From Candidatus Cloacimonadota bacterium (GTDB lineage Bacteria > Cloacimonadota > Cloacimonadia > JGIOTU-2): a stretch of 64,000 nt of DNA. A model generated the notes under the pieces. It saw only the letters and a list, made by a program, of their open reading frames with translations, was not told the origin of the DNA and made no database searches. Below are positions 7,426 through 53,397 of this stretch, in pieces. Made by a program: the position numbers and the translations under genes. The stretch lies in assembly GCA_018334695.1 (NCBI GenBank), contig JAGXLO010000001.1:7551-71550 (forward strand), given 5' to 3'. Within the stretch, counting starts at the first letter, position 1; each line of letters opens with the position of its first letter.

Positions 7426-7441
7426 AAGACCGAGGTTATAA

Positions 7442-9340
<1,899 letters not shown>

Positions 9341-9366
9341 AACAAAAATATTAAGGATGGCATTAA

Positions 9367-12481: not shown

Positions 12482-12512
12482 TTTGCAATAATATCCATCT
12501 AGTAAGGTGATT

Positions 12513-13811
12513 ATGAATGCTCATGAGATAATTATAAAAAAAAGAGATCAAAAGGCATTAACTAAAGCAGAAATAGTCTATTTTGTAGATGAATACTTAA
12601 AAGGCAACATCGAAGAATACCAGATGTCTGCTCTGCTGATGGCAATTTTGCTTAATGGAATGAACTATCAGGAAACCTATTGGCTAACAGAAAGCTATAT
12701 TAATTCTGGGAATACAATAGATTTTGGCAAAACCAATGGTAAATATATCGATAAACATAGTACAGGCGGAGTAGGGGACAAGGTTTCGATAATTTTGGCA
12801 CCCCTGGTGGCAGCTTGCGGTGTATATGATCCTATGATTTCGGGAAGAGGGCTTGGTCATACAGGTGGTACACTTGATAAACTGGAATCTATTCCCGGTT
12901 TCAAAACTAATGTTAAGAAAGAAGAATTTAAAAATTTGGTCGCTAAAAATGGATTTGCTATCATTAGTCAAACCGAGGACCTGGTTCCCGCAGACCATAG
13001 AATTTATGCAGTTAGAGACGTTACCGGCACAGTAGAGAGCATTCCTTTGATTACTGCCAGTATAATGAGTAAAAAAATTGCCTCCGGTATAGATGGACTT
13101 GTTATTGATCTAAAAGTAGGAGCCGGAGCTTTTATGCAAAAGCTGGAACACGGAAAAAATCTGGCAAAATTTTTGAAAAAAGTAGGAGAAGAATTTGGCA
13201 AAAAAGTCAAAGTGGTGTTTACATACATGGACGCACCTTTGGGTTATACTGTGGGAAATGGAATTGAGATAATAGAAAGCATTGAATTCTTAAAAGGTAA
13301 TTACCAAAAAGATCTAAAAGAAGTTGTATTTGCTTTAGCCAAACAAATGCTAATCATGGCAAACCTGACGGATTCAGAAAAAAAAGCTACTGAAATGTTG
13401 CAAAAAGCTCTCGATTCAGGGGGAGCGCTGGAAAAATTTAAGAATTTTGTCAAATTACAAAATGGAGATATAAATATAATTGATGATTATTCTCTATTAG
13501 TTTCTCCCAAATCAGAAATCGAAATAAAGGCTTCTGAAGGTGGATATGTAAAAAAAATTAACAGCCGAGAAATTGGCTGGGCTTTGATAGACGTTAATGC
13601 CGGTAGAAAAGTAATTACAGACAGTTTGCATCACTCGGCCGGATTAGAAATTTACAAAAAAATTGGTGATAAAGTAAAAAAGGGTACAACATTAGCCACT
13701 TTATATTTTAGTAACGATAAGGGAGAAGAAACAGCCAAAAGAATTCAAAAAGCTTTTGAAATTTCTTCATCTAAACCCAAAGGGCATTCAAGAATTATTG
13801 ATATTATTTAA
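12513..13811 (+). CDS. pyrimidine-nucleoside (thymidine) phosphorylase
   Basis: HSTGGVGDKVS phosphate-binding motif, SGRGLGHTGGTLDKLE and the overall ~430-aa architecture of the Pdp/DeoA family. An alternative GTG start lies at 12507. Confidence 0.85.
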   Translation: MNAHEIIIKKRDQKALTKAEIVYFVDEYLKGNIEEYQMSALLMAILLNGMNYQETYWLTESYINSGNTIDFGKTNGKYIDKHSTGGVGDKVSIILAPLVAACGVYDPMISGRGLGHTGGTLDKLESIPGFKTNVKKEEFKNLVAKNGFAIISQTEDLVPADHRIYAVRDVTGTVESIPLITASIMSKKIASGIDGLVIDLKVGAGAFMQKLEHGKNLAKFLKKVGEEFGKKVKVVFTYMDAPLGYTVGNGIEIIESIEFLKGNYQKDLKEVVFALAKQMLIMANLTDSEKKATEMLQKALDSGGALEKFKNFVKLQNGDINIIDDYSLLVSPKSEIEIKASEGGYVKKINSREIGWALIDVNAGRKVITDSLHHSAGLEIYKKIGDKVKKGTTLATLYFSNDKGEETAKRIQKAFEISSSKPKGHSRIIDII

Positions 13812-20259: not shown

Positions 20260-22293
20260 ATGATAGCAATCTTTTTACTTCTAATTATTATTTCAGCCGC
20301 TCTAACATATTTCTACTACCGAGATACAAATCCCCCCCTGTCTAGAAAAAATAAAATATTACTTGGTTCGCTTCGTTTTATATTTTTTCTGATAGTTTTT
20401 ATTCTTCTGCTCTCGCCAGTTTTACACTTTACTGATAAATCCAAAATTCCTCCGGAAGTTGTAATAGCTATTGATAGTAGTGCCAGCATGAAAGAGATAA
20501 TGCAGAATGGAAAAAGTAAATTAGAAAATGCAAGTAACATTGTATCAAATATTGAGCAAGAAGCAAAAAGGAAAAATTTAAAACTAAAAACTTATAATTT
20601 TAGTAATGGACTGAGTTCCGATTCAACTAAAACTGATATTTTCTTAGCCCTTAATCAAATCTCCCAACAGGAACAAGCAAATAATTTAAAGAAAATTATA
20701 CTTATATCAGATGGCTTACACCACAACAGCAATAACTTTAACTTACTGGATAATATCAATGAACCAGTATATCCGATTGAACCGGGAAAACCTAAAAAAA
20801 GTTTTGATATCTCATTAGAATCAATACAAACTAATAACCCTGTATATAAAAATTTTGAAACGGAAATAAAAGCAACTGTTTCCGGTTTGGAAAATAAGAT
20901 GCCAATCAGATTAAGTCTATGGCAAAATGATCAGAAATTATTACAAAAGCAATTCACCGCCACGGCCGGTTCTGAAGATTTTACATTAAATTATCAACCA
21001 ATGAAACTGGGTTATCAGAAGTTTATTCTAAAAATTTCTGCTCCTGAAAATACCGATTCGAATCAAAGAAATAATCAAAAACAATTTCTATTGTATGTGG
21101 TAAAAAATAAATTGCAAATTACATTGATCAGTTCTCAGTTGAATTGGGATCCTACTTTTGTTAATCGAGCTTTAAAAAAGAACAAAAAATTTGAAACAAA
21201 CTTCCTTGTAAAAAGAAAACAAAACTATTTTTCAGACGGCAAAGCAACTAATGTAAAAGAGTTTCTGGATTGTGATCTTCTGATTTTACACAACAATGAA
21301 GAATTTAATTTCTCCGAAACAGTATATGACAGAATTAGTAAATATTTGGAGAACGGTGGAAATATTTTATATCTTAACAAGATTGATCCGGAAATTGAAG
21401 AGATCTTACCTTTACGTTTGAGTAAATACAAAAAAAATGTTGATGCCAAGATAGTATTAACAAAAAATGCCCAGAATTATCAAACATTTAAAGTAGAACA
21501 AAATTGGATGGAGAATGATGAATTTTGGAGATCCTTACCACCTATTACTGCTCAATTTTATTCTGCAAAAAACAATGCACAAGTACTTGCTAAAGCTGAT
21601 ATACCTACCCAGAATCCTGTGATCGCCTTTTCAAGCTATGGTAAAGGTCATGTGATGATATTTGCTTTAAGTGGATTATATCGCTGGAAAATGTGGCAAG
21701 ATTCCGCTAGTCCCTGGTTTGATAATTTTACTAATTCAGTTACAAATTGGCTTATCAATGCTCAAACAGACAAAAGATTTATCTGTAATACAGACAAGTT
21801 GCAATATTTATCCGGGGATGAAATAAAATTTTCTGCTCATGTTTTTGATGAGAAAATGAATACAATTTCAAATCAGGATATCTCCCTAGCGATAACAAAA
21901 AACGATAGTTCATTTCTTAAAAAATATTTGACTGAATCCGCAAATAAATATACTACCCAGGTTACTATTAATGAAACCGGAAGATATAGATACCAGGCAG
22001 AAGCAAAGATCGGAAATAAAGTGTTGACAGATAGCGGTGAATTTTTGGTCGATAAGATGACAAGAGAGCAAAGTACAAAAGGTATTAACAATAATATTCT
22101 GAGTTTTATTGCCAATAAAACCAACGGAAAACTAAATGCAAATATTACTGATTTATTTAACGAAAATTATACAAGTAAAACGGTGAAAACAAAAATTGAT
22201 TTTAATCTCTGGAAAAAATGGTATATCGCTCTGATAGCTATAGCTATTTTTTCTTTAGAATTATTTCTTAGAAAAAGAAAAGGATTATTATGA
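20260..22293 (+). CDS. membrane protein with vWA-like domain (BatA/BatB-like N-terminus)
   Basis: Two N-terminal TM helices are followed by VVIAIDSSASMKE, which resembles the DxSxS MIDAS motif of von Willebrand A domains. A long extracytoplasmic region and a C-terminal TM helix (WYIALIAIAIFSLELFL) follow. 677 aa. Confidence 0.5.
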   Translation: MIAIFLLLIIISAALTYFYYRDTNPPLSRKNKILLGSLRFIFFLIVFILLLSPVLHFTDKSKIPPEVVIAIDSSASMKEIMQNGKSKLENASNIVSNIEQEAKRKNLKLKTYNFSNGLSSDSTKTDIFLALNQISQQEQANNLKKIILISDGLHHNSNNFNLLDNINEPVYPIEPGKPKKSFDISLESIQTNNPVYKNFETEIKATVSGLENKMPIRLSLWQNDQKLLQKQFTATAGSEDFTLNYQPMKLGYQKFILKISAPENTDSNQRNNQKQFLLYVVKNKLQITLISSQLNWDPTFVNRALKKNKKFETNFLVKRKQNYFSDGKATNVKEFLDCDLLILHNNEEFNFSETVYDRISKYLENGGNILYLNKIDPEIEEILPLRLSKYKKNVDAKIVLTKNAQNYQTFKVEQNWMENDEFWRSLPPITAQFYSAKNNAQVLAKADIPTQNPVIAFSSYGKGHVMIFALSGLYRWKMWQDSASPWFDNFTNSVTNWLINAQTDKRFICNTDKLQYLSGDEIKFSAHVFDEKMNTISNQDISLAITKNDSSFLKKYLTESANKYTTQVTINETGRYRYQAEAKIGNKVLTDSGEFLVDKMTREQSTKGINNNILSFIANKTNGKLNANITDLFNENYTSKTVKTKIDFNLWKKWYIALIAIAIFSLELFLRKRKGLL

Positions 22294-28437: not shown

Positions 28438-30819
28438 ATGAAATTTGTTGAACTCGAAGATAAAAATATTTTAGACAAAGATTTATTGCAAAAAATAGAT
28501 AAGTACTGGCAGGCAGCCAATTATTTATCTGTAGGCCAAATATACCTGAAGGATAATCCTTTATTAAAAAAAGAATTAAAATCTGAAGATGTAAAATCCA
28601 GGCTATTGGGACACTGGGGGACAACTCCGGGTCTAAATTTTATCTATGTTCATCTTAATAGAGTTATCAAGCAAAACGATTTAAATTTGATTTATGTTAC
28701 CGGACCAGGACATGGCGGACCGGGATTGGTGGCAAATACATATCTAGAAGGCAGTTATTCCGAATATTATCCCAATATTTCCCAAGATGAAGAGGGTATG
28801 AAAAAACTTTTTAAACAATTTTCCTTTCCGGGAGGAATTCCCAGTCATGTGGCTCCTGAAACACCTGGGTCTATAAATGAAGGTGGGGAGTTAGGATACT
28901 CGTTAGCACATGCTTTTGGGGCAGTTTTTGATAATCCGGATCTCATTGCCTGCTGCGTAGTGGGAGATGGAGAAGCAGAAACAGGAGCTCTTGCTACAAG
29001 CTGGCATTCTAATAAATTCCTTAATCCCATAAATGACGGTGCTGTTCTACCGATATTACATCTAAATGGTTATAAAATTGCCAATCCAACCGTTTTAGCA
29101 AGAATTCCCAAACAAGAATTGGTGGATCTGTTCCAGGGTTATGGCTATAAACCATACATTGTGGAAGGCAATAAACCACTGGAAATGCATCAAAAAATGG
29201 CTGCAACGCTGGATTCTGTATTTAAAGAAATAAATTCAATTCAACTAGATATTCGCAAGAATGGCTTTAAAAAACGACCCAAATGGCCCATGATAATATT
29301 TAAGACTCCAAAAGGCTGGACCTGCCCCAAAAAGATAGATGGAAAAAAAATTGAAGGCTCTTTCCGCTCGCATCAGGTTCCTGTATCTGACCTTGATGAA
29401 AATCCGGATAAATTGAAAATTCTGGAAAATTGGATGAAGAGTTATAAACCGGAACAATTGTTTGATGAAAAAGGAAAATTACTACCTGAATTAAGCAAGT
29501 TGGCTCCCAGTGGTAAAAAGAGGATGGGGGATAACCCACATGCCAATGGTGGAGTGTTACGCAAAGACCTAATTATGCCTGATTTTACAGATTATGCCGT
29601 GGAAGTAAAAAATCCCGCTCAGAGAACCGCAGAAGCGACCAGAGTCCTAGGGAATTTTTTGCGTGATATAATGAAAAAAAATATGAAATATAAAAACTTT
29701 CGTGTGATGGGACCTGATGAAACAGATTCCAATCGTCTCAGTGCGCTTTTTGATGTAACTGAAAGAGTTTCTACTGCCAAAATATTACCTGAAGATGAAA
29801 ACATCTCATCCCAGGGTAGAGTTATGGAAATACTAAGTGAACATCTATGCCAGGGCTGGTTAGAAGGCTACCTTCTAACAGGCAGGCACGGTTTATTATC
29901 TTGCTATGAAGCATTTATTCATATTGTTGATTCCATGTTCAATCAGCATGCAAAATGGCTTAAAGTGACCAAAAACATCAGTTGGAGAAGACCACTGTCA
30001 TCTCTGAATTATCTTTTGACCTCTCATGTATGGAGACAGGATCATAATGGTTTTAGTCATCAAGACCCTGGGTTCATTGACCATGTTGTAAACAAAAAAG
30101 CAAATGTGGTAAGAGTTTATCTGCCACCGGATGCAAATACTTTACTCTCCGTAGCCGACCACTGCCTTCGTAGTAAGGACTACATAAATGTTATAGTTGC
30201 CGGAAAACAACCTGAACTCCAGTATCTGAGTATGGATGAAGCTATAAAACACTGTACAAAAGGCATTGGAATCTGGGAATGGGCGAGTAATGATGAAAAT
30301 TCAAAACCCGATGTGGTTATGGCATGTGCAGGAGACACACCAACTTTGGAAACTCTTGCTGCTGTAGATATATTAAGAACTCATATTACTGATTTGAAAA
30401 TTAGAGTTGTTAATATTGTTGATTTGATGACCCTACAACCGGAAACCGAGCATCCGCACGGCTTATCTGATAAACAATTCGATTCCATGTTTACTAAAAA
30501 TAAACCAGTCATTTTTGCTTTTCACGGATATCCCTGGCTTATTCACAGATTAACCTATAGAAGAACAAACCATAAAAACATTCATGTTAGAGGTTATAAA
30601 GAAGAAGGAACAACCACAACACCCTTTGATATGGTAGTTCAAAATGATCTGGATCGCTTTAATCTGGTGATGGATGTAATAGATAGACTTCCCGCCCTTG
30701 AACAAACCGCTTCTCATCTTATGCAAAAAATGAGAGATTTACTAATCGAGCATAAACACTATATAGAAAAATATGGTGTAGATATGCCCATGGTGAGAAA
30801 TTGGAAATGGAAGTACTAA
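28438..30819 (+). CDS. xfp: xylulose-5-phosphate/fructose-6-phosphate phosphoketolase
   Basis: 793 aa. The characteristic N-terminus (...[21 protein letters not shown]...GHWGTTPG), the TPP-binding region (GPGHGGP) and the length all fit phosphoketolases. Confidence 0.9.
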
Positions 30820-35219: not shown

Positions 35220-35250
35220 TTGACATAATAGATATGCTTTCTTTTATAGT
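35220..35250 (+). promoter_or_regulatory. candidate sigma70-like promoter for the 35273 gene
   Basis: A perfect TTGACA lies at 35220-35225, followed 17-19 nt later by TTTATA/TATAGT. A GGAGG SD at 35265 and an ATG at 35273 follow. This is sequence pattern only. Confidence 0.25.
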
Positions 35251-35272
35251 AATACAAATATATGGAGGTTAT

Positions 35273-38194
35273 ATGACATCCAATATAATTATTACTGATG
35301 TAGGTAGTACAACTACAAAAGCCATTTTATTGCAGAAATCCAATGATAATTCTTTTGATATTGTTGATATTGTCAAATTTCCGACTACTGTGGAAAAACC
35401 GGAAGAAGACGTAAATATTGCAATAAATAAAGCTTTTAAGGCATTACAGAAAAAAATTAGTACTCCCCTATTTTCTGATCATATGGAACTAAACAAAAAT
35501 GTTCAGTTTTTCTCTACAAGTAGTGCAGGGGGAGGATTGCAAATAATCGTTATAGGTTTAACCATGTTTGATTCTGCTAGTAGTGGAAAACGTACTGCCT
35601 TTGGAGCAGGTGGTGTAATTTTGGATACATTTGCTATTGATGACAAAAGAACTGCCTTACAACAGATGCAAACCATGCACATACTCCATCCTGATATAAT
35701 TTTGATGGCTGGCGGTGTGGATAAAGGTAATGTTAATTCATTAATTCGCTTAGCAGAGATACTACAATTAGCAAAACCAACTCCAAAATTTGGAAAAAAA
35801 AATAAAATACCACTCGTATTTGCCGGCAATAAATCAGCCCAATCCTATATCAAATGGATTCTTAAAGATAATTTTCACATTGAAGTTGTATCCAATATAA
35901 GACCTACTTTACAAGAGGAAAATCCTGAACCTGCAAGGAAGAAAATTCACCAACTCTTTATGGATAATGTAATGGAACAAGCACCTGGATATGGCAAATT
36001 AAAACAAAAAACCAATAGTGATATAATTCCTACACCTTTGGGAGTTATCAAATCTCTTAAAATTGTTAGCGAGAAACTAGATAAAAATCTCTTGGCAGTA
36101 GATATTGGAGGTGCAACAACAGATATTTTTTCTAACATACTCGGAGAATACTTTAGAACTGTAAGTGCTAACTACGGAATGAGTTACAGCATTTCTAACG
36201 TGGCAAAAGATATAGGTTTTGAAAAACTGATTAAGCTATTACCATCACTATTTTCAGAAGATTACATTAGAAATTATATTTCGAATAAAATGCTTTATCC
36301 TACCTATATTCCAACTAATAATTTCCAGCTTTCAATTGAACAAGCAATTGCTAAATTAGCTATTCAACTTAGTAAAAAACAGCATTTTGATATGAATTTT
36401 AATACAGAAAAAATTGGTTTTCTAGACGATTTAAAGAGATCAATTCTATCTGAAAAAATTACTGAAACGTTCTATTATCAAGATGCTTTAAATAAAAGAA
36501 AGTTTCACATGAACGATATTGATATTCTTATAGCAAGTGGTGGTGTGATCTCCTCTGCTAACAATAAGCAACTATTGTATATTATGAATCTCGGTTTTAA
36601 TCCCGAAGGAATAACCGAAGTTTGGAAGGATAAACACTTCCTAACTCCTCATATGGGAGTTTTGAGCAATAAAGAAAAAGAACTGGCATCAAAAATACTA
36701 ATTGAAGAGTGTATAGTAAAAATCGGTTTGGTGGTTCGACCTTTTGGCAAACAATGGAAATCAGATAAAAAAGTAATCACAATTAAAATTGATTCTGAGC
36801 AAGAAAAAACTCTATTAACAGGAGATCTAAAATATTTTGATAACCCCGATAAAAGAGAAAGATCCATAAAGATTAACCTCCATAACGGATTTGAAGTTGG
36901 TGATGATGTCTCCAAAACCGAGTTCAATTCAAAATTACCGATACTAATTGATTGCCGACCCAAAGATACCTATACAAATGAAGCTGAATCCTATGAATTT
37001 AAACAAGAGCTAGAATCTATCGAAAAAAGTTTTAATGAGTTCATCCCTGATAAAACTATAGTTTCAGGAGTTATTAAAAAAAATATTAATCTCCCCTACC
37101 CGGGTGAAATATTAGTTAAAAATGGAGATAAGATAGAACCCGGTGATCTAATAGGTAAAAACGTCTATGATCCCCCAAAAGTTTATATACTAACTCTTTT
37201 TGATAAAAACCAACTTCAAATTAACAAAGAGAATATTAAAGAATCATTAATTATCAAAGAAGGAGATGAGGTAAAATTAGGACAAAAAATTGCTAAAGTA
37301 AAAGGACGCAAGTTGCTTGATTCAATGAGTTCCAAACGATTTACATATTCTTCTCCTGTTCGGGGAAGGGTGGAAAAAATTAATCACGAAGTTGGAACAA
37401 TAATCTTACGTGAAATTCAGGATTATTCCGACAAACCCGTAAAAGTGAAAATTGCCAAAAGGCTTGATATTAAACCTAAGAAGATGAAAAAATATTTAAA
37501 GAAAAACGTAGGCAATTTTGTTTACGCAGGTGATCTCTTGGCCTCAAAAGTGGTAGATGTTATGTCAAAATCAGATGCACCAGCCCATATGGACAAGTAC
37601 GAGCTATCGATTCAAGCACCAAGTACTGGAACAATTACCAACATCGATTATGACAAAGGAACTCTTACTATCAAATATGAAAAAGAACCCTTTAAAAAGT
37701 TTTCTCATATCTATGGAATCGTAGAAAATGTGGAACCCGAGATTTCAGCTGAACTCAAATTCAATGGTTACAAATTACTGGGCATAATAGGTTTTGGTAA
37801 CGAAAACAGTGGTAAACTACATTATATAAGTGAATTAGAAGACATTATCACCTGCAATAAAGGAGAAATAGCTGCTTATCGGGGCAAAATTGATCAGAAT
37901 TTTCTTAAAAAAGCTGAAGAGCTTGAACTAAATGGAGTGATTAGTGCCTCCATAGATAATCAGGATCTAATCAATTTCATTGGCGAGGAGATTGGAGTTG
38001 CCCTAACTGGTAATGAAAAAATACCATTCCCCTACATTTTAACAGAAGGTTTTGGAGATTTTGAGATGTGTGTTGATTATAAAGAATTTCTGAAAGAGCA
38101 TGATAACGAGTGGTGTTATATCAACGGACACACTCAGATAAGAGCAGGTGTAACGAGACCAAAGATCATTATTAATAAAAAAGAGACTAAATAA
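35273..38194 (+). CDS. large multidomain protein: GlmL/MutL-like actin-fold ATPase N-terminus plus C-terminal hybrid-barrel (biotinyl/lipoyl-like) motifs
   Basis: The start is reset to the ATG 7 nt after GGAGG (MTSNIIITDVGSTTTKAILL), the phosphate-1 motif of the ASKHA fold as in the glutamate-mutase accessory protein MutL/GlmL and EutA-like proteins. A second ASKHA-like block (LLAVDIGGATTDIFS) is present. The C-terminal half carries several hybrid-barrel-like motifs: GEILVKNGDKIEPGDLIGK, IKEGDEVKLGQKIAKVKG, SPVRGRVEKINHEVGTIIL and APSTGTITNIDYDKGTLTI. Confidence 0.55.
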   Translation: MTSNIIITDVGSTTTKAILLQKSNDNSFDIVDIVKFPTTVEKPEEDVNIAINKAFKALQKKISTPLFSDHMELNKNVQFFSTSSAGGGLQIIVIGLTMFDSASSGKRTAFGAGGVILDTFAIDDKRTALQQMQTMHILHPDIILMAGGVDKGNVNSLIRLAEILQLAKPTPKFGKKNKIPLVFAGNKSAQSYIKWILKDNFHIEVVSNIRPTLQEENPEPARKKIHQLFMDNVMEQAPGYGKLKQKTNSDIIPTPLGVIKSLKIVSEKLDKNLLAVDIGGATTDIFSNILGEYFRTVSANYGMSYSISNVAKDIGFEKLIKLLPSLFSEDYIRNYISNKMLYPTYIPTNNFQLSIEQAIAKLAIQLSKKQHFDMNFNTEKIGFLDDLKRSILSEKITETFYYQDALNKRKFHMNDIDILIASGGVISSANNKQLLYIMNLGFNPEGITEVWKDKHFLTPHMGVLSNKEKELASKILIEECIVKIGLVVRPFGKQWKSDKKVITIKIDSEQEKTLLTGDLKYFDNPDKRERSIKINLHNGFEVGDDVSKTEFNSKLPILIDCRPKDTYTNEAESYEFKQELESIEKSFNEFIPDKTIVSGVIKKNINLPYPGEILVKNGDKIEPGDLIGKNVYDPPKVYILTLFDKNQLQINKENIKESLIIKEGDEVKLGQKIAKVKGRKLLDSMSSKRFTYSSPVRGRVEKINHEVGTIILREIQDYSDKPVKVKIAKRLDIKPKKMKKYLKKNVGNFVYAGDLLASKVVDVMSKSDAPAHMDKYELSIQAPSTGTITNIDYDKGTLTIKYEKEPFKKFSHIYGIVENVEPEISAELKFNGYKLLGIIGFGNENSGKLHYISELEDIITCNKGEIAAYRGKIDQNFLKKAEELELNGVISASIDNQDLINFIGEEIGVALTGNEKIPFPYILTEGFGDFEMCVDYKEFLKEHDNEWCYINGHTQIRAGVTRPKIIINKKETK

Positions 38195-39978: not shown

Positions 39979-42900
39979 TTATTCTTGAATTTGTTTCATA
40001 TATTTTTTGATGAGATTGTGATATTTTTCGGGATAATTTTCATAGATTTCTTTAAGGAAATCACGATATTCGATTTTTTCCATATCTAGCTTGAGTGAAT
40101 CAGGTACAGAATATTCAGCCTCATCAGGGCTTTCAGCTCTTCTTTTTTGACTAAAATCGCGCTTATGAATTGACTTTTGGGCATCAAGAAGTCTGGAATA
40201 TATATGTTGCTGTTTTTCCAACAATTCTTCATCAATTGTGCCTTTACGTAACTTTTCTACAACTTCTTCCAGTAATTCTTCTGTAGATTCAAGGTCACCT
40301 AATAATTTTTTTGCTTCCGGATAATCTTTTAGTACTCTTTCCAGATTTTCTTTTATTCTCTGCTCATTGGCAGTTATACGTTCCATCATCTGGCGCTGTT
40401 CCTGGCTCAAACGGGGTGAAGTTTTACCGTTTTGCCCCATCTTTTGCATCATTTGCTGAAAAAGAGCCATAGATAATTGATTGGCCATTTTTTGTCCCTG
40501 GGACATCTGCTGTAATTGCTGCATAAGCTGCTGCATACCACCTCCACTCTGTCCAGATCCGCCGCGTGATTGTAATAAGTCCGAAAGCATTTTGTTAATT
40601 GAATAAAAAATTTCTTCTTTATCCTTTTGCACATTATAATTACGATTATTACGTAGTGCATCAAACATATTTTCAAAAAGATTGAAAGTGGAAGCCGAGT
40701 GTTTCATTATACCTGGATTAATGCTAAACATGATCAAAGGATTCTGAAATAGAGTTTTCATGCTATTTTGTAAACCCTCGTAGATTTCAATCTCTCTATC
40801 CAAAATTTCAAATGCTCCATATTCCCTGGGCAAAATCGTTTCTTGCTGTTTTGAGTAGTATAGCAGGTTCTCTACAGTTCTTTTTATTAACTTTTTAAAC
40901 TTCTCTTGCATAGCATTTTGCATCATCTGTTGAGATTTACAAATGGATGAACACATCTTGCCCATGCATTCTGAAATAGAGTTTTGAGTCTGGGAAGCTT
41001 TGCTCGACTGATTTTTTTTCAACTGCTCAATAGCGTCCTGTAGCTGCTGAGAAAGCTTACTTTGTTCTGCCTCTGACAAGGCTTTTTCGAGTTGTTCAGC
41101 TGCTTTTGACTCTTTGTTTTCTCTTAAGTTTTTGGCCTGTTTCTCAAGCTCTTTTTTAAGCTGCTGATATTTTTTAGATATCTCTTCCTGCTTTTTACTC
41201 AAACCACTCAAGTCCTGATTGTTTTCGCTTCTTTTTTTAGTAAGCTTATTTAATTGATCCTGTAATTTTTTTAATTCATTAGCTTGCTGAATAAGCTTTT
41301 GCATATCCTGTTCCTGTTTTACCTTTTTTAAAAGATTTAGTGTATTCTCCAATCGCTTCAGGAACTTCTCCTGAGAAAACTTGAAATTTTTAAGAGCCTC
41401 TTTCATATCTTCCGGCTTCATTTTCTTTATTGATTCTTGCAGGTCCTTCATAGCTTCTTTTAGCTCAGGAGTTGAAATATCTTCCATCAGTTTTTGTAGT
41501 TCTTTTAATTTTTCCATAGTCTCTTGAGAAGCAAGTTTGTTTTTTTCTACTTCTTCAATGAATTTCTTATATTCTTTGGCAGTTTGTTCAGCTACTTTTG
41601 ACATCTCCTCCTGCTTTTTTAGAATACTTTTAAGATCTTCCTTTTCTTGCCATTCATATTCTTCTTGCTTAAGATATTTTCTTCTTAACTGTTCAAATTT
41701 CTTCTTATTCTTTTCACTTTCCTTAAAGGCTCTGGAAAGATTGTCGGATTGAGATTGCTGTTCTTTATCAATCTCTTCATAAAGCTCTTCTATCGAGGGA
41801 AATTTGAGTAAATAAGTTTTAGATCTCCCAGTTTGTTTTTCAGGTATTGAACAATTATCATAAACTTTGAGAAAATAGCTTATAATGTCCCCGGGCATCA
41901 GATCAATATCACTAACATCAAAAACGAAACTGTCTTTATAAAATGAATTGGTAATATTTTCTGAAATTGTCTCTTCTTTGAATTCATCATTATTCTTTTT
42001 GAAGACGATAGATATTTTGGATAAACCAAAATCGTCCGAGCTGGTAAACAGTATGGTCTCAGTTAGCTGCTTTGCCAAAAGTTTATCCCGTGCAGGTGCA
42101 AGTATTTCAATAGTTGGAGAAAGATCCTCTTCAGCATAAATATTCCTCTCTATAGGCTGATTTTGATTGTTCAATGTATCTACAAGCAAGAAGTGATAAG
42201 TTCCGGTATTTTCTATATTGAACACCGTACTATAGTTGTATTTATTAATTTTATCTAATTTATTGGTTTCCCCATCAGAAAAAATAATCCGATGTTTTTT
42301 CAGATCATTATTAACTAATAAATTTACTGTAATCTTCGTTCCACGAAGTGCTATTACATTTCCGGACGCGTTTTCCTCTGTTTTATCTGGAATATTTGCA
42401 TACTCAGGATAATCATATTTTAGAGTTAATTCTTTGATTGCGGGCTTTGATAAGGTATTTACAAAAAATGTATCAGATGAAGCAAACTCATTTTTTAGAC
42501 AGTAATACATAGTATCTGTAACATTATAGAAAGTATATTTATCAGAAGCCAGATTGACCTGTTTTGTTCTTAAATTCTTTTTTATGAATAGATCATATTG
42601 CAGGTTAGGATTATAATTATCTATTGATATCTGAAGATTTGATCCTCTCAATAATGTTGCATCTCCGGGCTTTATTTCAATTTTTTTATCGTATTTTGGT
42701 GAAAATCTCTCAATATCTGTAAGAGTTATTAAAGAATTATTACACAGACCAGGTAATACCAAGTAGAAAACTAAAATAAAGACAAGAGATATGAATAAAA
42801 TTTTTATATGCCAGAGAACTTTTTGAGGAGGAAAAATCTCACTGTAACCTAAATTCTTTGTAATTTGATTAGCTTTTTTAATGGTAGCTTTTTGGATATC

Positions 42901-43245
42901 CGAAGAGTAAAAATCTTTTTTTGCTTTTTCCAGTTCAAAGGCAGCAAGAATGATTTCTTTGCTTCCCTCTTCAATTTGGGCAATTCTCTGTGCAATTTTT
43001 TTTAGAGAAGTAAAAGACAAACTAGACCTGACCACAAATAAGACCAGCAAAAGAGTAATGATGACTTTATAGATTATACTGATAACTAGGAGTGATTCAT
43101 AACTACTAAGCAGTAAATTTGAAACAAAAGTATAGGTTATAAAGGAAACAATAAGCAATAGAATTAGTATAACAAAGTTTACGAAAATTTGTTGTAGTAA
43201 AAATTTAAGTCTAAATTTTTTTAATTTATTTATATATGAATTCAT
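39979..43245 (-). CDS. large membrane-anchored coiled-coil protein (DUF4175-like)
   Basis: 1088 aa. N-terminal TM helices are followed by a beta-rich extracytoplasmic region. Then comes ~450 aa of K/E/Q-rich coiled coil and Q/G/M-rich low-complexity blocks (GGSGQSGGGMQQLMQQLQQMSQGQKM). The architecture is reminiscent of DUF4175 / Bat-operon-associated proteins. The family call is from memory only. Confidence 0.5.
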   Translation of the reverse strand: MNSYINKLKKFRLKFLLQQIFVNFVILILLLIVSFITYTFVSNLLLSSYESLLVISIIYKVIITLLLVLFVVRSSLSFTSLKKIAQRIAQIEEGSKEIILAAFELEKAKKDFYSSDIQKATIKKANQITKNLGYSEIFPPQKVLWHIKILFISLVFILVFYLVLPGLCNNSLITLTDIERFSPKYDKKIEIKPGDATLLRGSNLQISIDNYNPNLQYDLFIKKNLRTKQVNLASDKYTFYNVTDTMYYCLKNEFASSDTFFVNTLSKPAIKELTLKYDYPEYANIPDKTEENASGNVIALRGTKITVNLLVNNDLKKHRIIFSDGETNKLDKINKYNYSTVFNIENTGTYHFLLVDTLNNQNQPIERNIYAEEDLSPTIEILAPARDKLLAKQLTETILFTSSDDFGLSKISIVFKKNNDEFKEETISENITNSFYKDSFVFDVSDIDLMPGDIISYFLKVYDNCSIPEKQTGRSKTYLLKFPSIEELYEEIDKEQQSQSDNLSRAFKESEKNKKKFEQLRRKYLKQEEYEWQEKEDLKSILKKQEEMSKVAEQTAKEYKKFIEEVEKNKLASQETMEKLKELQKLMEDISTPELKEAMKDLQESIKKMKPEDMKEALKNFKFSQEKFLKRLENTLNLLKKVKQEQDMQKLIQQANELKKLQDQLNKLTKKRSENNQDLSGLSKKQEEISKKYQQLKKELEKQAKNLRENKESKAAEQLEKALSEAEQSKLSQQLQDAIEQLKKNQSSKASQTQNSISECMGKMCSSICKSQQMMQNAMQEKFKKLIKRTVENLLYYSKQQETILPREYGAFEILDREIEIYEGLQNSMKTLFQNPLIMFSINPGIMKHSASTFNLFENMFDALRNNRNYNVQKDKEEIFYSINKMLSDLLQSRGGSGQSGGGMQQLMQQLQQMSQGQKMANQLSMALFQQMMQKMGQNGKTSPRLSQEQRQMMERITANEQRIKENLERVLKDYPEAKKLLGDLESTEELLEEVVEKLRKGTIDEELLEKQQHIYSRLLDAQKSIHKRDFSQKRRAESPDEAEYSVPDSLKLDMEKIEYRDFLKEIYENYPEKYHNLIKKYMKQIQE

Positions 43246-45938: not shown

Positions 45939-47411
45939 CTACTTTACAGAAGTAAAGAATTCCTTTGCTTTTTCTCTAAATTTATCCTTACCTGCAATTA
46001 ATTTAGTAGTAATTGGAGCCACTTTTTTTGCTTCATTCACAATAAAATTTGCCACTTCCCTTATCTCCCATTGAGCATGTTTATCCTGGCGCAATCTGGC
46101 AAAATTGCAAAGCTCACGAATATTTAATTTAAAAAGCACAGCTTTATGGTGGGCATTAGTTAAAACATAGTTTTTTACCTGCGGTATTTTGTCGGCAAAA
46201 ACAGTATAAACAGAATTTGTATAAGAAACTATATTATTAAAAATATTTTCTAAATCTGCATTTTTTATGGCGGTAGGTATAGTTACACCGTATTCAGGAC
46301 AATAATCAGAAGTTAGTACTGATGAAAGTCGATGCCGTTTTAGTTGTGCAAAGCAGGATGAGCTTATATTAAGTTGATATGTAAGATCTGCATATTCAAA
46401 AGAACGAGGTAATGGATCATAGCTTTCTATGTTTTGCAAATTTTTCTTCAGAAAATTTAATTTTTCATCATAATCCATATTTTCTAATTCAATTTTAAGA
46501 ATTTCATAAGATTCGCCCGTTTTACGAAACAACAGAGCAGCCAAAATATTAACATCGATATTGGGGGAATAATTTAATAATTTATTTTCTATTCCATCAT
46601 AAATTTTATTATTTTTGTTGCTAAAATTGTAAAGTCCCCTGTCATAAGAGGATGGTTCTACATAACGAATCAAGGAAGGAGTGCGATTTTTCGCCAGATG
46701 ATATAATTTATCGGCTAGTTCGGAAGCTTCTTTGAATTTTTGTGAATACAATCTTTTTAAAAGCCTTTCCAGACTCCTGGCATTTATAGTCATACCCATT
46801 TGAGTTTTTGTGGACAAAGAAAGGACATATCGGGCATCTTCTTTTGCTTTTGACTCCAGTTCCCGTCTGGATTTATTCTGCAGATTTTCATTTTTGTGAT
46901 TATAGTAATATATCAACTTATTATAAAGTTCAAAGTAAGCCTTATTCTGTTTTTCAATCAGCTCTAAAAATTGTTCTTTTAATTCTATACGCGCATCCAA
47001 TTCTATGGGTGTAACAAAATCACCATCAAGAGTAACATATCTCTGAGACTTTTCTGTATAAGAGGCAAGTCTTGTTCTCTGAACAAACTCGATTAAATAG
47101 CGCGAGATACCAATTATATCAAAATTGAAGACTGCATGTTCGGCAATAGAACTGTGCCCCATATCAAATACAATGTTTTTATTGGACTTACGAGCTCTGG
47201 TTACATTTTTTATGGCAATTTGTCTTAATACATCTACAGCTTTTTGGGAACGACTAATACGTGCATAAGCAGCTGAGATTGTCTCGGGAGTAAGTTCAAT
47301 TTTCTCCAATATTTTTTCAGCTTCGGTCAAATTACCACCATTACTAATTTGATTAAATAGCTTATCAAAAAGAGAAATATCTAGATTAAAACCGGCTAAA
47401 TTTACTTTCAT
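45939..47411 (-). CDS. thyX: flavin-dependent thymidylate synthase ThyX family, tandem-domain form
   Basis: The N-terminal half matches the ThyX core (AYARISRS; HSSIAEHAVFNFDIIGISRYLIEFVQRTRLASYTEKSQRY versus the canonical H.S.FEH..FTF.......RHR..S..E.S.RY). The downstream NARSL and RQDKHAQWEIRE blocks match ThyX too. A second, more divergent ThyX-like copy (KRHRLSSVLTSDY) fills the rest of the 490 aa. Confidence 0.65.
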   Translation of the reverse strand: MKVNLAGFNLDISLFDKLFNQISNGGNLTEAEKILEKIELTPETISAAYARISRSQKAVDVLRQIAIKNVTRARKSNKNIVFDMGHSSIAEHAVFNFDIIGISRYLIEFVQRTRLASYTEKSQRYVTLDGDFVTPIELDARIELKEQFLELIEKQNKAYFELYNKLIYYYNHKNENLQNKSRRELESKAKEDARYVLSLSTKTQMGMTINARSLERLLKRLYSQKFKEASELADKLYHLAKNRTPSLIRYVEPSSYDRGLYNFSNKNNKIYDGIENKLLNYSPNIDVNILAALLFRKTGESYEILKIELENMDYDEKLNFLKKNLQNIESYDPLPRSFEYADLTYQLNISSSCFAQLKRHRLSSVLTSDYCPEYGVTIPTAIKNADLENIFNNIVSYTNSVYTVFADKIPQVKNYVLTNAHHKAVLFKLNIRELCNFARLRQDKHAQWEIREVANFIVNEAKKVAPITTKLIAGKDKFREKAKEFFTSVK

Positions 47412-47418
47412 AATTAAT

Positions 47419-49197
47419 TTAGGATAGATTTAATTTCGCAAGTGTTTCAGCAGTTGGTTTTCCTTCGTTATCCCAACCACGTAATTCGTAATATTCATTC
47501 AGCATCTTATCTAATTCTACTACTCTGTTTCTGGAGGAACCGGTTTTTAATTTATCATTTAAAAAACGTTCAGGTAAAATATCGTCATCTCTTTTAAAAC
47601 CGGCCTCTACATTGAATTTGCGTTCCAGATTATATATTCGGGTTCCAATTTTCACAGCGTCATCTCCAGTTAAGTTAGAACCAGTTACCAGATTAACGAT
47701 TTTAGCAAAATTATCAATGCCAATTGCAAATTGTAAAAACCTACATAAGATAGTTGAATCCACAAAGGCTGATATATCCTGAAAGAGACTAACTATTCTT
47801 GCTTTTCCTGCTGTAGAAAATCTATTCAAATTAACAGGCTGACCCAGTATTTCCGGACCTATCATATAAGCTCTCATATGGCAGCCACCTCTATTAGATG
47901 TTGCATAAGCTAAGGCAAGACCCTGAGCACCACGCGGATCGTAAGCAGGTAATTCTAACCCTTTTACCTCCATAGCTAATTGTGGTTTTCCATATTTTTT
48001 AGCTAGTCTCTTAGCACCAAGAGAAAGTTCTTTACCAACTCCTTTTCTCAAACCAATTTTTTTGACCAGCTCCACAAGTCTATCAGCATCTCCCCATCTA
48101 ATATTGTCTGGAAAAAGTCCTTTTTCAGAAAGTTCCATAGCACATCCGATGGTGTTACCGGCTGAGATTGTATCAATTCCCATTTCATTGCAAATATAGT
48201 TAGCTTCCGTAACAGCCTTAAGGTCACTAATTCCTAATTGAGCTCCAAAAGCCCATACAGTTTCATACTCGGGACCTTCTCCTTTTTTATTATCCGTTTC
48301 TGTTGATCTGCCACAAGCAATCGGACATTTATAACAGGCACTCTGTTTTTTTAGAATATTTTCTGATATCTTCTGTCCACTTATACCCTCTGCATCATTA
48401 AAAACTCCTTTTTGAAAATTTTTAGTAGGAAACATTCCATGCTTATTTATGGTATCAACCAAAACAGAGGTACCCAGAGCAGGTAGCAATTTACCAGTAA
48501 CTGGATTTTTCTTTACCAATCTATTTAAAAAACTTTTGAAATTTTTTAGCTCTTCCGGATAGGCGATGGATGTTTTCTTAGTACCATATGCTACCAGTGC
48601 CTTTAAGTTTTTTGATCCCATTACAGCTCCCAAACCACCTCTGCCTGTAGCTCTATCTTTATCGTTCATAAGAGCTGCGAAGAGTACTTTGTTCTCACCT
48701 GCTTGCCCAATACAGGTAATACTTGCCTTGGGATTTACTTCTTGAGCTATGATATCTCTTGTTTCATGAGTGTTTTTTCCCCATATATTTGTTGCATCAC
48801 GTATTTCAACAGAGTCATCAGTAATATTAACATAGACCGGATTTTTTGCTTTTCCCACAAATATCAAACCGTCGAATCCTGCTTCCTTTAAACGCATACC
48901 GAATAATCCACCCGAGCTTGAATCGCAAATAGTATTTGTGAGCGGGGAACGAGAAATAACCTGGAATCTACCAGATGTAAGAACAGTTCCGGTTAAAGGA
49001 CCGGTCATAAATATTAATGGATTTTCAGCATCAAATGGTTTTATATTAGGGCTTGATAAATCAGTAAACAATTTTACACCAACTCCCCTACCTCCCAAAA
49101 AATTTTCTCGGGTACTATCAGTAAGCTCAATTTCTTCTTGTTCATTATTTGAAAGGTTAATTTTTAATATTTTATTCATCCAGCCAGCCATATTCAC
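47419..49197 (-). CDS. aor: aldehyde:ferredoxin oxidoreductase (tungsten-containing AOR family)
   Basis: 592 aa. The AOR N-terminal domain starts (G)WMNKILKINLSNNE, like YGxAGKILRVDLT in other family members. The [4Fe-4S]/pterin ligand cysteines sit in CYKCPIACGR, and the family length is conserved. Confidence 0.8.
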   Translation of the reverse strand: MNMAGWMNKILKINLSNNEQEEIELTDSTRENFLGGRGVGVKLFTDLSSPNIKPFDAENPLIFMTGPLTGTVLTSGRFQVISRSPLTNTICDSSSGGLFGMRLKEAGFDGLIFVGKAKNPVYVNITDDSVEIRDATNIWGKNTHETRDIIAQEVNPKASITCIGQAGENKVLFAALMNDKDRATGRGGLGAVMGSKNLKALVAYGTKKTSIAYPEELKNFKSFLNRLVKKNPVTGKLLPALGTSVLVDTINKHGMFPTKNFQKGVFNDAEGISGQKISENILKKQSACYKCPIACGRSTETDNKKGEGPEYETVWAFGAQLGISDLKAVTEANYICNEMGIDTISAGNTIGCAMELSEKGLFPDNIRWGDADRLVELVKKIGLRKGVGKELSLGAKRLAKKYGKPQLAMEVKGLELPAYDPRGAQGLALAYATSNRGGCHMRAYMIGPEILGQPVNLNRFSTAGKARIVSLFQDISAFVDSTILCRFLQFAIGIDNFAKIVNLVTGSNLTGDDAVKIGTRIYNLERKFNVEAGFKRDDDILPERFLNDKLKTGSSRNRVVELDKMLNEYYELRGWDNEGKPTAETLAKLNLS

Positions 49198-49200
49198 TCC

Positions 49201-50025
49201 TTATTCATAAAATTTATTATATTTATTCTTGTATTTACAGTTTGAGCATCTTTTTTTGTAATATTTGAATATTGATTTGGGGACTGAGGTAATGGAAACA
49301 TGTCTTGCGGGACAGATATGGCAAGGAATTTCCGGTTCAAGCCAGGCATCTTCGGCATATTTATACAGGGACAGACCTTCTAATATTGAGACTCCGGCGC
49401 TGGCTCCTATTCGGTTTGCACCAGCTTTGATTAGACGCCAGGTATCTTTAAAATTTTTAATACCACCAGCGGCTTTCACACCAATATTAGCTCCAACTGT
49501 TTCTCTCATAAGCTTTACATGTTCAGGCAAAGCACCAAAAGCTCCGAACCCGGTAGAAGTTTTTACAAATTTGGCTCCGGCAGAAACTGAGATTTCACAT
49601 CCTTTCACTATTTGTTCATTTGTAAGATAACAGTTCTCTAGTATTACTTTAACATGCGCAGGATAACTAGCTTCTACTACTTTTCTTATATCCCTTTCCA
49701 CATACTCATAATCACCTTCTCTGAGTAATCCATTATTTATTACCATATCTATTTCCCCGGCACCATCTTCCACTGCTTTTTTTGCTTCTGCAGCTTTTAC
49801 CTCTGTCTTATTTGCACCAAGAGGAAAACCTGCAACTACACAAACTTCTACGTTCGTATTTTTTAGTATATCACTAGCAAATTTTGTATGGCAGGAATTA
49901 ATGCATACTGAATAAAATCCAAAATTTACGGCATCTTCACAAAGTTTTTTTATTTTTTTCTTGCCCGATGAAGCTTTTAACTCGGTATGATCAATCATTT
50001 TTGCTAATTCTTTTCTGGTAATCAT
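49201..50025 (-). CDS. deoC: deoxyribose-phosphate aldolase with C-terminal Cys-rich (zinc-ribbon-like) extension
   Basis: DeoC motifs MIDHTELK, VCVVAGFPLGA and the Schiff-base lysine region KFVKTSTGF are present. A ~55-aa tail carrying CHICP...CSNCKYK follows the aldolase barrel, which is not standard for DeoC. Confidence 0.8.
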   Translation of the reverse strand: MITRKELAKMIDHTELKASSGKKKIKKLCEDAVNFGFYSVCINSCHTKFASDILKNTNVEVCVVAGFPLGANKTEVKAAEAKKAVEDGAGEIDMVINNGLLREGDYEYVERDIRKVVEASYPAHVKVILENCYLTNEQIVKGCEISVSAGAKFVKTSTGFGAFGALPEHVKLMRETVGANIGVKAAGGIKNFKDTWRLIKAGANRIGASAGVSILEGLSLYKYAEDAWLEPEIPCHICPARHVSITSVPKSIFKYYKKRCSNCKYKNKYNKFYE

Positions 50026-52213: not shown

Positions 52214-53167
52214 TTATTGGGAAATCCTTTCAATAATTTTTTCGGCAATAGTAAAGGGATCAGTATTGTTATTATAAATCTTGTCAACAATTTTAGCAAT
52301 TACTTCTTCATCAAAATAGCGTGCATTAATTTTTTCCAACAAGGAATTGTGCACAATATTCATAATTTCATTTTCAATTCTTTGTTTACGTTTTTCCACC
52401 AACTGTCCACTATCTTTCATATATTGGAAATGCTCAGCCAGAGCCAATTTTACTTTATTCATACCTTTGTTCTTATTAGCAATAGTTTTTATGATTTGTG
52501 GTTTAAAATCCTTCTTGTTATCATTCAATTGCCACAGCAGTTCTATTTCTGCTTCAATTTTGTCTGAACCCGGTCGGTCACTTTTATTGATAACAAATAC
52601 ATCCCCTATCTCCATAATGCCGGCCTTCATCACCTGCACACTATCACCGGAAGATGGTGTAAGCAGCAAACATACAGTATCCGCAAATTTGATAATTTCC
52701 ACTTCAGATTGTCCCACACCCACGGTTTCCAGGAAAATGATATCATAACCGGCTGCGGACATTAGGGTAATTGTATCGTTGGTCTGAGGAGCAAGACCGC
52801 CCAGGTGCCCACGTGACGCCATACTCCTGATAAATACTTTTTCATCAGTGGAGTGATTTTGGAGCCTTATTCTGTCTCCCAGAATTGCACCATGCGAAAA
52901 AGGGCTAGTAGGATCAACTGCAATTACTGCAACTTTTTTTCCTTCTTTCCGATAAAGTTTAATGAGCTTGTCCGAAATCGTGCTCTTTCCGGCACCGGGA
53001 GCTCCAGTAATACCTATTACATGGCTGTCTGTTCTCCTGGGATATACTTTTTGTATAATATACGGAAGCTTCTCCTTATCATCCAGCTGTGTAATCAAGC
53101 GAGAGAGCGCGCGTGTATCTCCCTCCAACAATTTAAATATATTCTTATCAATCTCTACTCTAGTCAT
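52214..53167 (-). CDS. meaB: MeaB/ArgK-type G3E family GTPase (methylmalonyl-CoA mutase-associated GTPase family)
   Basis: Walker A GITGAPGAGKST. The switch regions and the Cys-rich metal-chaperone-like stretch are typical of G3E GTPases. The N-terminal LAO/AO-transport-system-like region is present. 317 aa. Confidence 0.8.
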   Translation of the reverse strand: MTRVEIDKNIFKLLEGDTRALSRLITQLDDKEKLPYIIQKVYPRRTDSHVIGITGAPGAGKSTISDKLIKLYRKEGKKVAVIAVDPTSPFSHGAILGDRIRLQNHSTDEKVFIRSMASRGHLGGLAPQTNDTITLMSAAGYDIIFLETVGVGQSEVEIIKFADTVCLLLTPSSGDSVQVMKAGIMEIGDVFVINKSDRPGSDKIEAEIELLWQLNDNKKDFKPQIIKTIANKNKGMNKVKLALAEHFQYMKDSGQLVEKRKQRIENEIMNIVHNSLLEKINARYFDEEVIAKIVDKIYNNNTDPFTIAEKIIERISQ

Positions 53168-53397
53168 ATTTGGTATTTCCTGATAAATTTTAATATCTTG
53201 TCAATTTTAGGGAGATAATATTTTGTTGCAGTCAATTTTAGTAATGTTTTCTTTTTATCAATGGTGGTATAGTAACAAAATCCCTCAAAAGCTTCAAGTA
53301 TATAACCAACATAAATTAATTCTTCAGGATTTGTTTTAATTACAATTTCTTGGCTTTTACCCTCGAGTTCCTTGCGAGAAATTTCTTCTGCCTGCAT
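53164..53397 (-). CDS. small hypothetical protein translationally coupled to meaB
   Basis: 77 aa. Its stop overlaps the meaB start (4-nt overlap). No recognisable motif. Confidence 0.4.
   Translation of the reverse strand: MQAEEISRKELEGKSQEIVIKTNPEELIYVGYILEAFEGFCYYTTIDKKKTLLKLTATKYYLPKIDKILKFIRKYQI

Follow-up and report, generated by a model that had tools for sequence, protein, structure and literature searches.

A deoC gene, predicted to encode a deoxyribose-phosphate aldolase (DERA), and the aor gene that follows it on the same strand, predicted to encode an aldehyde:ferredoxin oxidoreductase (AOR), were analysed in a 64,000-nucleotide stretch of DNA from a Candidatus Cloacimonadota bacterium (assembly GCA_018334695.1, contig JAGXLO010000001.1, positions 7,551 to 71,550 of the forward strand). 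This whole stretch is called the window, and coordinates are its own unless another locus is named. It is a housekeeping stretch of low GC content (~33%), and its nearest relatives in this region are metagenome-assembled genomes (MAGs) of Cloacimonadota. A preliminary description of the window had read the two genes as an adjacent pair, and this holds: the first product matches the TIGR00126 equivalog model at 264 bits (cut-off 117), and the second contains AFOR_N (PF02730, 251 bits) and AFOR_C (PF01314, 483 bits), each over the full profile. The aldolase carries a C-terminal tail with four cysteines (Cys4) that accompanies this type of AOR across phyla, and which probably serves to dock the aldolase onto its partner. 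The features of the pair are as follows.

49201-50025, minus strand: deoC open reading frame, 274 amino acids (TIGR00126, Pfam DeoC)
49372-50025, minus strand: DeoC catalytic domain, residues 1-218, a class I aldolase TIM barrel (TIGR00126, fold, invariant residues)
49204-49371, minus strand: 56-residue C-terminal Cys4 tail of DeoC, residues 219-274, presumably a small helical metal-binding domain (conservation, AlphaFold2)
49309-49326, minus strand: first cysteine pair, P234-C235-H-I-C238-P239 (PCHICP; 51-sequence alignment)
49237-49248, minus strand: second cysteine pair, C260-S-N-C263 (CSNC; 51-sequence alignment)
49192-49203, minus strand: deoC stop codon, overlapping the aor ribosome-binding site AAGGAG, plus spacer (sequence reading)
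47419-49191, minus strand: AOR, WorL type, 590 amino acids (AFOR_N and AFOR_C)
48313-48336, minus strand: AOR C286-x2-C289-x3-C293, three of the four predicted [4Fe-4S] ligands (alignment with Pyrococcus furiosus AOR)
47743-47745, minus strand: AOR C483, the fourth predicted [4Fe-4S] ligand (alignment with P. furiosus AOR)

Within the window, deoC is flanked by ricT on one side and by aor on the other. The sequence AAGGAG overlaps the deoC stop codon, as read in TAAGGAGtgaatATG, and the stop codon and spacer, TAAGGAGTGAAT, are followed by the ATG of aor. The 3-nucleotide gap given in the preliminary description is correct for the mechanically called aor frame, which starts at the GTG at 49197, 3 nucleotides past the deoC stop. 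However, because the aor homologues all have the N-terminus MNGWMGK and because AAGGAG overlaps the deoC stop codon, the real start is almost certainly, as read from the sequence, the ATG at 49191, so that the intergenic spacer would be 9 nucleotides. No terminator-like site was found in the deoC-aor gap.

The identity of the first protein as a deoxyribose-phosphate aldolase is well supported, and cleavage of deoxyribose-5-phosphate is predicted from its family. Pfam DeoC (PF01791) matches residues 9-213 at 59 bits (cut-off 23.8), and the best solved relatives are short-type DERAs, headed by 3ngj at 237 bits. An alignment of 51 diverse DeoC homologues was used, which spans the two groups of tailed proteins described below and at least four phyla, at 36-81% identity to the window protein. 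The alignment shows no variation at D93, K126, K155 (within FVKTSTG) or K184 (within GVKAAGG), and we take the catalytic residues, comprising the Schiff-base Lys, a second Lys and an Asp, to be the equivalents of D102, K167 and K201 of the Escherichia coli enzyme. In the AlphaFold2 model the barrel has predicted local distance difference test (pLDDT) values above 90, and Foldseek superposes it on 3ngj, 6d33 and 8qps with TM-scores normalized to the target (TMt) of 0.94-0.98 and root-mean-square deviations (r.m.s.d.s) of 0.7-0.9 Å. The short-type DERAs 3ngj, 6d33 and that of Thermotoga maritima (3r12; EC 4.1.2.4) have the same barrel and the same Asp and Lys residues as the window protein, at 50-54% identity and an r.m.s.d. 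of ~0.7-0.8 Å. The presumed reaction and the role in deoxynucleoside catabolism are likewise those of DERA in the E. coli deoCABD system.

What sets the window protein apart is its tail, which every solved DERA lacks. The preliminary description had noted some 55 residues with CHICP...CSNCKYK that are foreign to standard DeoC, and this was borne out: the tail comprises 56 residues (219-274, LSLYKYAEDAWLEPEIPCHICPARHVSITSVPKSIFKYYKKRCSNCKYKNKYNKFYE) with both CxxC pairs present, and no solved DERA chain extends past query residue ~217-218. In a Foldseek search of the PDB, only ~216 residues of the model could be aligned to any DERA (TM-score normalized to the query, TMq, ≤0.78), the tail having no counterpart. 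The 120 best DeoC homologues are all 265-300 amino acids in length and cover the query through its C-terminus, and the named members among them are Cloacimonetes, Cloacimonas, Tenebribacter or 'FCB group' MAGs. When a divergent tailed DeoC was used as the query, a second large group of 305-322 amino acids was recovered with full-length query coverage, its named members being Anaerolineae, Chloroflexi, Bacteroidales and Bacteroidetes MAGs. Homologues with the same tail, the search for which had been recommended, are thus abundant: among the matches listed, more than 240 conserve it over its full length.

The tail is also strongly conserved in sequence. In an alignment of 25 close homologues it is better conserved than much of the barrel, with the consensus AWLEPEIPCHxCPxR ... 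YYKKKCxxC ... YNKFYE. In the 51-sequence alignment P234, C235, C238, P239, C260 and C263 are invariant and W228 and K247 nearly so, and the prolines and cysteines of the tail are conserved to the same degree as D93, K126, K155 and K184 of the catalytic domain. His236 is variable, being replaced by Thr, Arg, Lys or Trp elsewhere, and is not a ligand because it is not conserved. The preliminary description had allowed that the tail might be an artefact. A missed stop codon, a frameshift or a read-through fusion is ruled out by the conservation at the protein level and by deoC-aor gaps of 8-15 nucleotides in mixed frames. The tail marks a whole AOR-linked DeoC family, and is neither rare nor peculiar to the source genome.

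No relevant Pfam match to the tail was found even at E = 10, only chance matches being returned. A tail profile searched against 1.84 billion representative proteins gave eight matches, all of them DeoC C-termini or fragments. A broader profile searched against a set of 5.8 billion proteins gave four, all truncated DeoC C-termini, in what was a weak search in which the word index supplied 23 candidates. In neither profile search was the tail found on a protein other than DeoC. With the 25 close homologues, AlphaFold2 gave the tail pLDDT values of 43-69, which are uninformative. With the 51-sequence alignment, the mean pLDDT of DeoC was 94.6 and the predicted TM-score (pTM) was 0.91, and successive ten-residue blocks of the tail scored 77, 88, 92, 95 and 89, with the final four residues at 67. 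The prediction contains four short helices (225-228, 234-237, 250-261 and 266-269) and no strands, the first cysteine pair opening a helix and the second closing the long one. This confident fold prediction indicates a small helical Cys4 domain, presumably metal-binding. The label of zinc ribbon, under which the tail had first been described, was therefore not retained: the two CxxC pairs ~20 residues apart are present, yet the tail is predicted to be helical, with no β-hairpin knuckles and no match to a zinc-ribbon model. A rubredoxin-like Fe(Cys)4 domain was likewise not indicated, the tail having PCxxCP and a CxxC without a following Gly, no CxxCG or CPxCG, and no Pfam match.

Lys, Arg and Tyr are abundant in the tail, whose net charge averages ~+4 against an acidic core, and Cys4 domains often bind nucleic acids. 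The tail might therefore bind nucleic acid and place the aldolase near DNA under degradation, a role that the preliminary description had also entertained. However, DERA acts on a free sugar phosphate that is separated from DNA by several steps, no DNA-binding family matches the tail, and the strict link to AOR described below would be left unexplained. We consider this the most improbable of the roles weighed here, and docking onto the AOR seems better supported.

The AOR is most similar to broad-specificity AORs. Among solved structures, the highest score was obtained with 9mqx_D, the catalytic subunit (WorL) of A. mobile WorABCSL (618 bits), followed by P. furiosus AOR (1aor, 563 bits), the AOR 9g7j (561 bits) and A. 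aromaticum AOR (8c0z, 491 bits). The formaldehyde oxidoreductase (FOR) 1b25 scored 334 bits, WOR5 (6x6u) 230 bits and BamB (4z3w) 209 bits, and the glyceraldehyde-3-phosphate oxidoreductase (GAPOR) model 53 bits against a cut-off of 1300. The sole NCBIfam model named for AOR, NF007354 (PRK09849), scored 228 bits against a cut-off of 868, so that the protein falls outside every curated equivalog model. Residues C286, C289, C293 and C483 are invariant and align with the CYACPIGCGR and LC motifs of P. furiosus AOR, and E310 and H438 are invariant and align with the catalytic Glu313 and His448 of 1aor. On this evidence the enzyme is closest to the broad-specificity AORs and does not group with FOR or GAPOR, an outcome that would have spoken against the original reading; a tungsten-type enzyme and aldehyde oxidation are predicted. 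The two Pfam domains, the [4Fe-4S] cysteine motif, the Glu/His pair and the length are similar to those of P. furiosus AOR, an enzyme of the monomeric type.

No gene for WorS, AorA, Bfu or another electron-transfer partner was seen adjoining aor at the locus. Clade 87 of the WOR family, the AOR-proper clade, has been divided into the BF, N, M and U types, which are bifurcating, NAD-linked, monomeric and uncharacterized membrane-linked, respectively (PMC12318220). Because no gene for an electron-transfer partner is adjacent, the window AOR resembles the M type as far as gene context can indicate. The same lack of a WorS-like gene, together with four invariant cysteines in two CxxC pairs and the cysteine-rich partner subunits WorS and AorA of other AOR-family enzymes (PMC12318220), could suggest that the Cys4 site of the tail binds rubredoxin-like iron or an Fe-S cluster and relays electrons from the AOR [4Fe-4S] cluster to an acceptor, DeoC then acting as a WorS-like small subunit. 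Such a relay is improbable in our judgement, since the tail has no rubredoxin CxxCG or CPxCG knuckles, matches no ferredoxin or rubredoxin model at E = 10 and is predicted to be helical, since an aldolase needs no electrons, and since M-type AORs, P. furiosus AOR for one, need no partner to reduce free ferredoxin (PMC12318220).

The association between the tail and the AOR was followed from both sides. In a tail-centred scan with the peptide W[LM]E[PE]EIPC, using one genome per species, 57 loci were obtained, mostly from Cloacimonadota and Aminicenantes/Acidobacteria MAGs, and a DeoC core was fused to the tail in 57 of 57. Three of these end within or at the tail and a fourth (L014) has a transposase-like open reading frame after deoC and then the end of the contig; these four were left out. 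Among the 53 loci that could be evaluated, AOR lies immediately downstream on the same strand in 52, usually after a gap of 8-15 nucleotides, and these AORs are 55-66% identical to that of the window. An insertion of 0.7-0.8 kb separates tailed deoC and aor in L006, L026 and L037.

From the other side, an AOR alignment was used as the query of a metagenome scan that covers AORs at least 46% identical to the window AOR (80 loci, 46-65% identity). A tailed deoC stands directly upstream of every evaluable AOR at an identity of at least 52%. In all, 19 AORs have deoC upstream, and the tail is present in 19 of 19; no deoC was found for 41 other AORs with at least 900 nucleotides of upstream sequence, and no tail-less deoC was found beside an AOR in the 80 loci. 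The only deoC-linked cases among the more distant AORs are three divergent pairs (L088, L093 and L111; AOR 46-48% and DeoC 39-43% identity), whose DeoC proteins end in the Cys4 tail, ...AWVETRVIPCTICPHG...YIKRCRTCPFRQYREDKDF. Two further divergent tailed DeoCs also have AOR downstream, and the pair occurs in Bacteroidota-like and Anaerolineae contigs with otherwise unrelated flanking genes. Adjacency of deoC and aor in other genomes, on which the preliminary description had depended, is hence found at dozens of loci, in uncultured anaerobes that belong to at least four phyla and include Cloacimonadota, Aminicenantes, Anaerolineae and Bacteroidales.

Several irregularities were noted at these loci. 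In Cloacimonadota MAGs, a transposase-like open reading frame of 206-217 amino acids directly follows tailed deoC in L026 (6361-6981, between deoC and aor) and L014 (6220-6873), and is read as RAYT/IS200-like from its HFHFF motif. The insertions in L006 and L037 are transposase-like only by size, that of L026 being the only one read. In L039, L043 and L053 aor or deoC is split or shortened, which may reflect pseudogenes or frameshifts introduced by assembly errors.

The DeoC-linked enzymes make up one large and one smaller clade of a neighbour-joining tree of 117 AORs, with none interspersed among the unlinked ones. A GVFNDAEG motif is common to the linked AORs, in which D266 is invariant; this residue is absent from the unlinked AORs, in which the motif as a whole was not seen either. 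Pairwise distances calculated for the DeoC core, the tail and AOR are correlated (r = 0.94-0.96), which shows that the two genes have been inherited together, and the evolutionary rate of the tail is as low as that of the catalytic domains. When the tail-AOR correlation was controlled for the DeoC core, a partial r of 0.37 remained (permutation p ~5e-4); the partial Mantel test is liberal on related sequences, and coevolution of tail and AOR beyond the DeoC core is suggestive only.

The chemistry of the pair can be outlined from these assignments. A nucleoside phosphorylase and phosphopentomutase would supply deoxyribose-5-phosphate, which DeoC would cleave into glyceraldehyde-3-phosphate, destined for glycolysis, and acetaldehyde. 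The co-translated AOR would oxidize the acetaldehyde to acetate with reduction of ferredoxin, and the reduced ferredoxin would be reoxidized by a hydrogenase or Rnf. The known chemistry of both families implies that the cassette as a whole converts deoxyribose-5-phosphate to glyceraldehyde-3-phosphate and acetate; the substrates in vivo, the direction of flux, the bound metal and physical contact between tail and AOR are what we infer here.

The wider gene context bears on the direction of flux. Two further features of the window are relevant.

12507-13811, plus strand: pyrimidine-nucleoside phosphorylase (TIGR02644, 546 bits against a cut-off of 409)
45939-47411, minus strand: thyX, 490 amino acids, with two Thy1 stretches and outside the conserved pair (Pfam Thy1, 206 bits; TIGR02170)

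The phosphorylase, which the preliminary description had placed at 12513, is thus real, and lies among gyrA and plsX/fatty-acid synthesis genes, 35 kb from deoC-aor. The other genes then proposed for a search, namely deoB (phosphopentomutase), deoD (purine nucleoside phosphorylase), pta/ack and tupABC, were not found in the 64-kb window. The gene order in Cloacimonadota is glmU-like, ricT, rlmN-like (in some), deoC, aor and thyX, and is specific to that phylum; thyX does not follow aor at the Aminicenantes, Anaerolineae and Bacteroidota-like loci. In Aminicenantes the order is amidohydrolase, fused dihydropyrimidine-dehydrogenase-like protein, cdd, tailed deoC, aor, ThiS/MoaD-like protein, pyrimidine-nucleoside phosphorylase and HAD hydrolase. 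Because the pair sits there between cdd and pyrimidine-nucleoside phosphorylase, this arrangement supports reading the Aminicenantes locus as a pyrimidine deoxynucleoside catabolic cluster and favours the catabolic direction, in line with the anaerobic deoxynucleoside catabolism first suggested for the window. Disposal of DERA-derived acetaldehyde by AORs has also been speculated independently for another phylum in a metagenomic study (PMC9324843).

The opposite direction was considered as well. In this alternative the AOR would reduce acetate to acetaldehyde, and DeoC would combine this with glyceraldehyde-3-phosphate to form deoxyribose-5-phosphate for deoxynucleotides upstream of ThyX. Both the DERA reaction and, in acetogens, that of AOR are reversible in principle, thyX directly follows aor in Cloacimonadota, and no other catabolic deo genes lie near the pair in the window. 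However, the adjacency of thyX is limited to one phylum, the Aminicenantes neighbours (cytidine deaminase, nucleoside phosphorylase and a dihydropyrimidine-dehydrogenase-like protein) are catabolic, and acetate reduction needs high acetate and ferredoxin of very low potential. Synthesis by this route is accordingly a very remote prospect, and with the electron relay and nucleic-acid binding it is less likely than either docking or the internal role for the tail discussed below.

Three observations on the Aminicenantes loci stand beside this. At L025 and L038 (~7960-8243) a small ThiS/MoaD-family protein ending in GG is encoded between aor and the phosphorylase, and it may be a sulfur carrier for the pterin cofactor of the AOR. 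In L011 (4828-6174), and also in L024 and L036, cdd and tailed deoC lie in one uninterrupted frame of 416-452 amino acids, which could represent a fusion of Cdd to DeoC or simply the fortuitous absence of an in-frame stop codon. They are separate genes in L016 and L038.

With regard to the tail itself, it is proposed that deoC and aor form a two-gene cassette that ends anaerobic deoxyribose breakdown, in which the tail is a small helical domain around a Cys4 metal site, most likely zinc, and acts as an adaptor by which the aldolase docks onto the AOR, the volatile and toxic acetaldehyde then being passed on directly and not set free. This proposal, which we hold to be probable while leaving considerable room for doubt, is made because the tail occurs only on DeoC whose gene precedes the linked AOR clade. 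The strict two-way association across phyla despite complete turnover of the flanking genes favours a role in coupling to the AOR, and docking with direct transfer of acetaldehyde would be the most economical reading of it.

The main rival explanation retains the same pathway but takes the tail to be an internal structural or regulatory Cys4 (zinc) element, either a stabilizer of the barrel or oligomer or a thiol redox switch, the co-occurrence with AOR then reflecting shared operon ancestry. Much that favours this explanation at the same time weighs against docking. AlphaFold2 places the tail confidently on the DeoC monomer, without a partner (at the pTM given above), so that it could be an intramolecular structural element. 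The pair has been inherited as a unit, with the distance correlations already mentioned, and there are no more than one or two clades of linked AORs, which points to few independent acquisitions; under vertical inheritance, the perfect co-occurrence may record one or two ancient events and not a continuing dependence on the tail. The specificity positions that distinguish both linked clades from the unlinked AORs number just two, D266 and L469, too few to define an interaction surface. The linked AORs are not more acidic than the unlinked ones, so that electrostatic complementarity with the basic tail receives no support. Furthermore, docking has to accommodate the one true exception in the tail-centred scan, L012, in which rnfCDGEA and not aor lies downstream of tailed deoC (6412-11386; rnfC-D-G-E-A, ferredoxin:NAD oxidoreductase, as read from their translations), and the absence from the window of the other deo genes, with the phosphorylase far removed from the pair.

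Against an internal element, the cysteines and prolines of the tail are as invariant as the catalytic lysines over at least four phyla despite turnover of every flanking gene, a tail-less DeoC was never found beside AOR nor a tailed DeoC in another context save L012, and the solved DERAs of mesophiles and hyperthermophiles are stable without a tail. We therefore regard an internal role as rather unlikely, and retain docking as the preferred reading.

Comparison with known systems places the cassette as follows. In E. coli deoC is paired with deoA, deoB and deoD, whereas in the window it is paired with aor; the clustering of a classical deo operon is not seen there, and Aminicenantes loci do cluster cdd and the phosphorylase with the pair. 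In pathways of the E. coli type, acetaldehyde passes to NAD/CoA-dependent dehydrogenases and not to a ferredoxin-linked tungstoenzyme. The linked AORs differ from P. furiosus AOR in forming distinct clades that are preceded by tailed deoC and carry the GVFNDAEG signature. The A. mobile WorABCSL (9mqx) and A. aromaticum AorABC (8c0z) enzymes provide a precedent for AOR subunits in fixed complexes with cysteine-rich partners. However, the partners in those complexes serve electron transfer after catalysis, whereas the partner of the window AOR would be a substrate-making enzyme, and the polyferredoxin and flavoprotein genes of those systems are absent beside the window aor. The closest logic is found in DmpFG and BphIJ, in which 4-hydroxy-2-oxovalerate aldolase and an acylating acetaldehyde dehydrogenase form a complex with a demonstrated tunnel and the toxic aldehyde is never freed. 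In these systems too the aldolase is encoded beside the enzyme that oxidizes acetaldehyde; the coupling is only hypothesized for deoC-aor, the families are unrelated (a class II aldolase and an NAD/CoA dehydrogenase) and the product is acetyl-CoA as opposed to acetate and reduced ferredoxin.

Each enzyme belongs to a known kind. Their fixed pairing and the AOR-specific tail are, to the extent that the literature could be searched, undescribed: no description of either was found there, an encapsulin paper that names both enzymes concerns unrelated archaeal operons, and an aldolase-partnered type is not mentioned among the clade 87 types (PMC12318220). It is conceivable, although we lean slightly against so far-reaching a claim, that the tail is a previously undescribed metal-dependent docking domain, that DERA is a fixed partner subunit of a tungsten AOR and that the two form the first aldolase-tungstoenzyme channelling complex.

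Broad-specificity AORs oxidize many aldehydes in vitro, and their physiological substrates have long been uncertain. The deoC-aor pair would give one AOR clade a defined source of substrate, combining removal of acetaldehyde with the capture of low-potential electrons, and, if this is true, the clade would be the first among AORs to have its physiological substrate, acetaldehyde from the sugar of DNA, fixed by genetics. The pairing bears on the use of extracellular DNA and nucleosides by abundant uncultured anaerobes in digesters and sediments. In addition, the tail motif W-x5-6-P-C-x-x-C-P ... C-x-x-C is a compact marker that predicts an AOR partner from deoC alone. DERA is an industrial biocatalyst that is inactivated by acetaldehyde, and the tail, if it is a docking module, could be used to tether DERA to an aldehyde-removing enzyme.

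Some further observations were made in the window. The thyX product, at 490 amino acids, is about twice the usual length. Two large proteins, of 1088 amino acids (39979-43245, minus strand) and 677 amino acids (20260-22293, plus strand), gave no Pfam match, the latter also having no NCBIfam match. A gene for a MeaB-type G-protein chaperone (52214-53397, minus strand) follows a DUF4911 gene and overlaps the glmU-like gene; the window yielded no mutase gene. A 986-amino-acid protein (35234-38194, plus strand) carries both a glutamate-mutase-type MutL domain and a biotin/lipoyl attachment domain. Finally, a phosphoketolase (Xfp) is encoded at 28438-30819 (plus strand), which would offer an alternative route from pentose or hexose phosphate to acetyl-phosphate and glyceraldehyde-3-phosphate.

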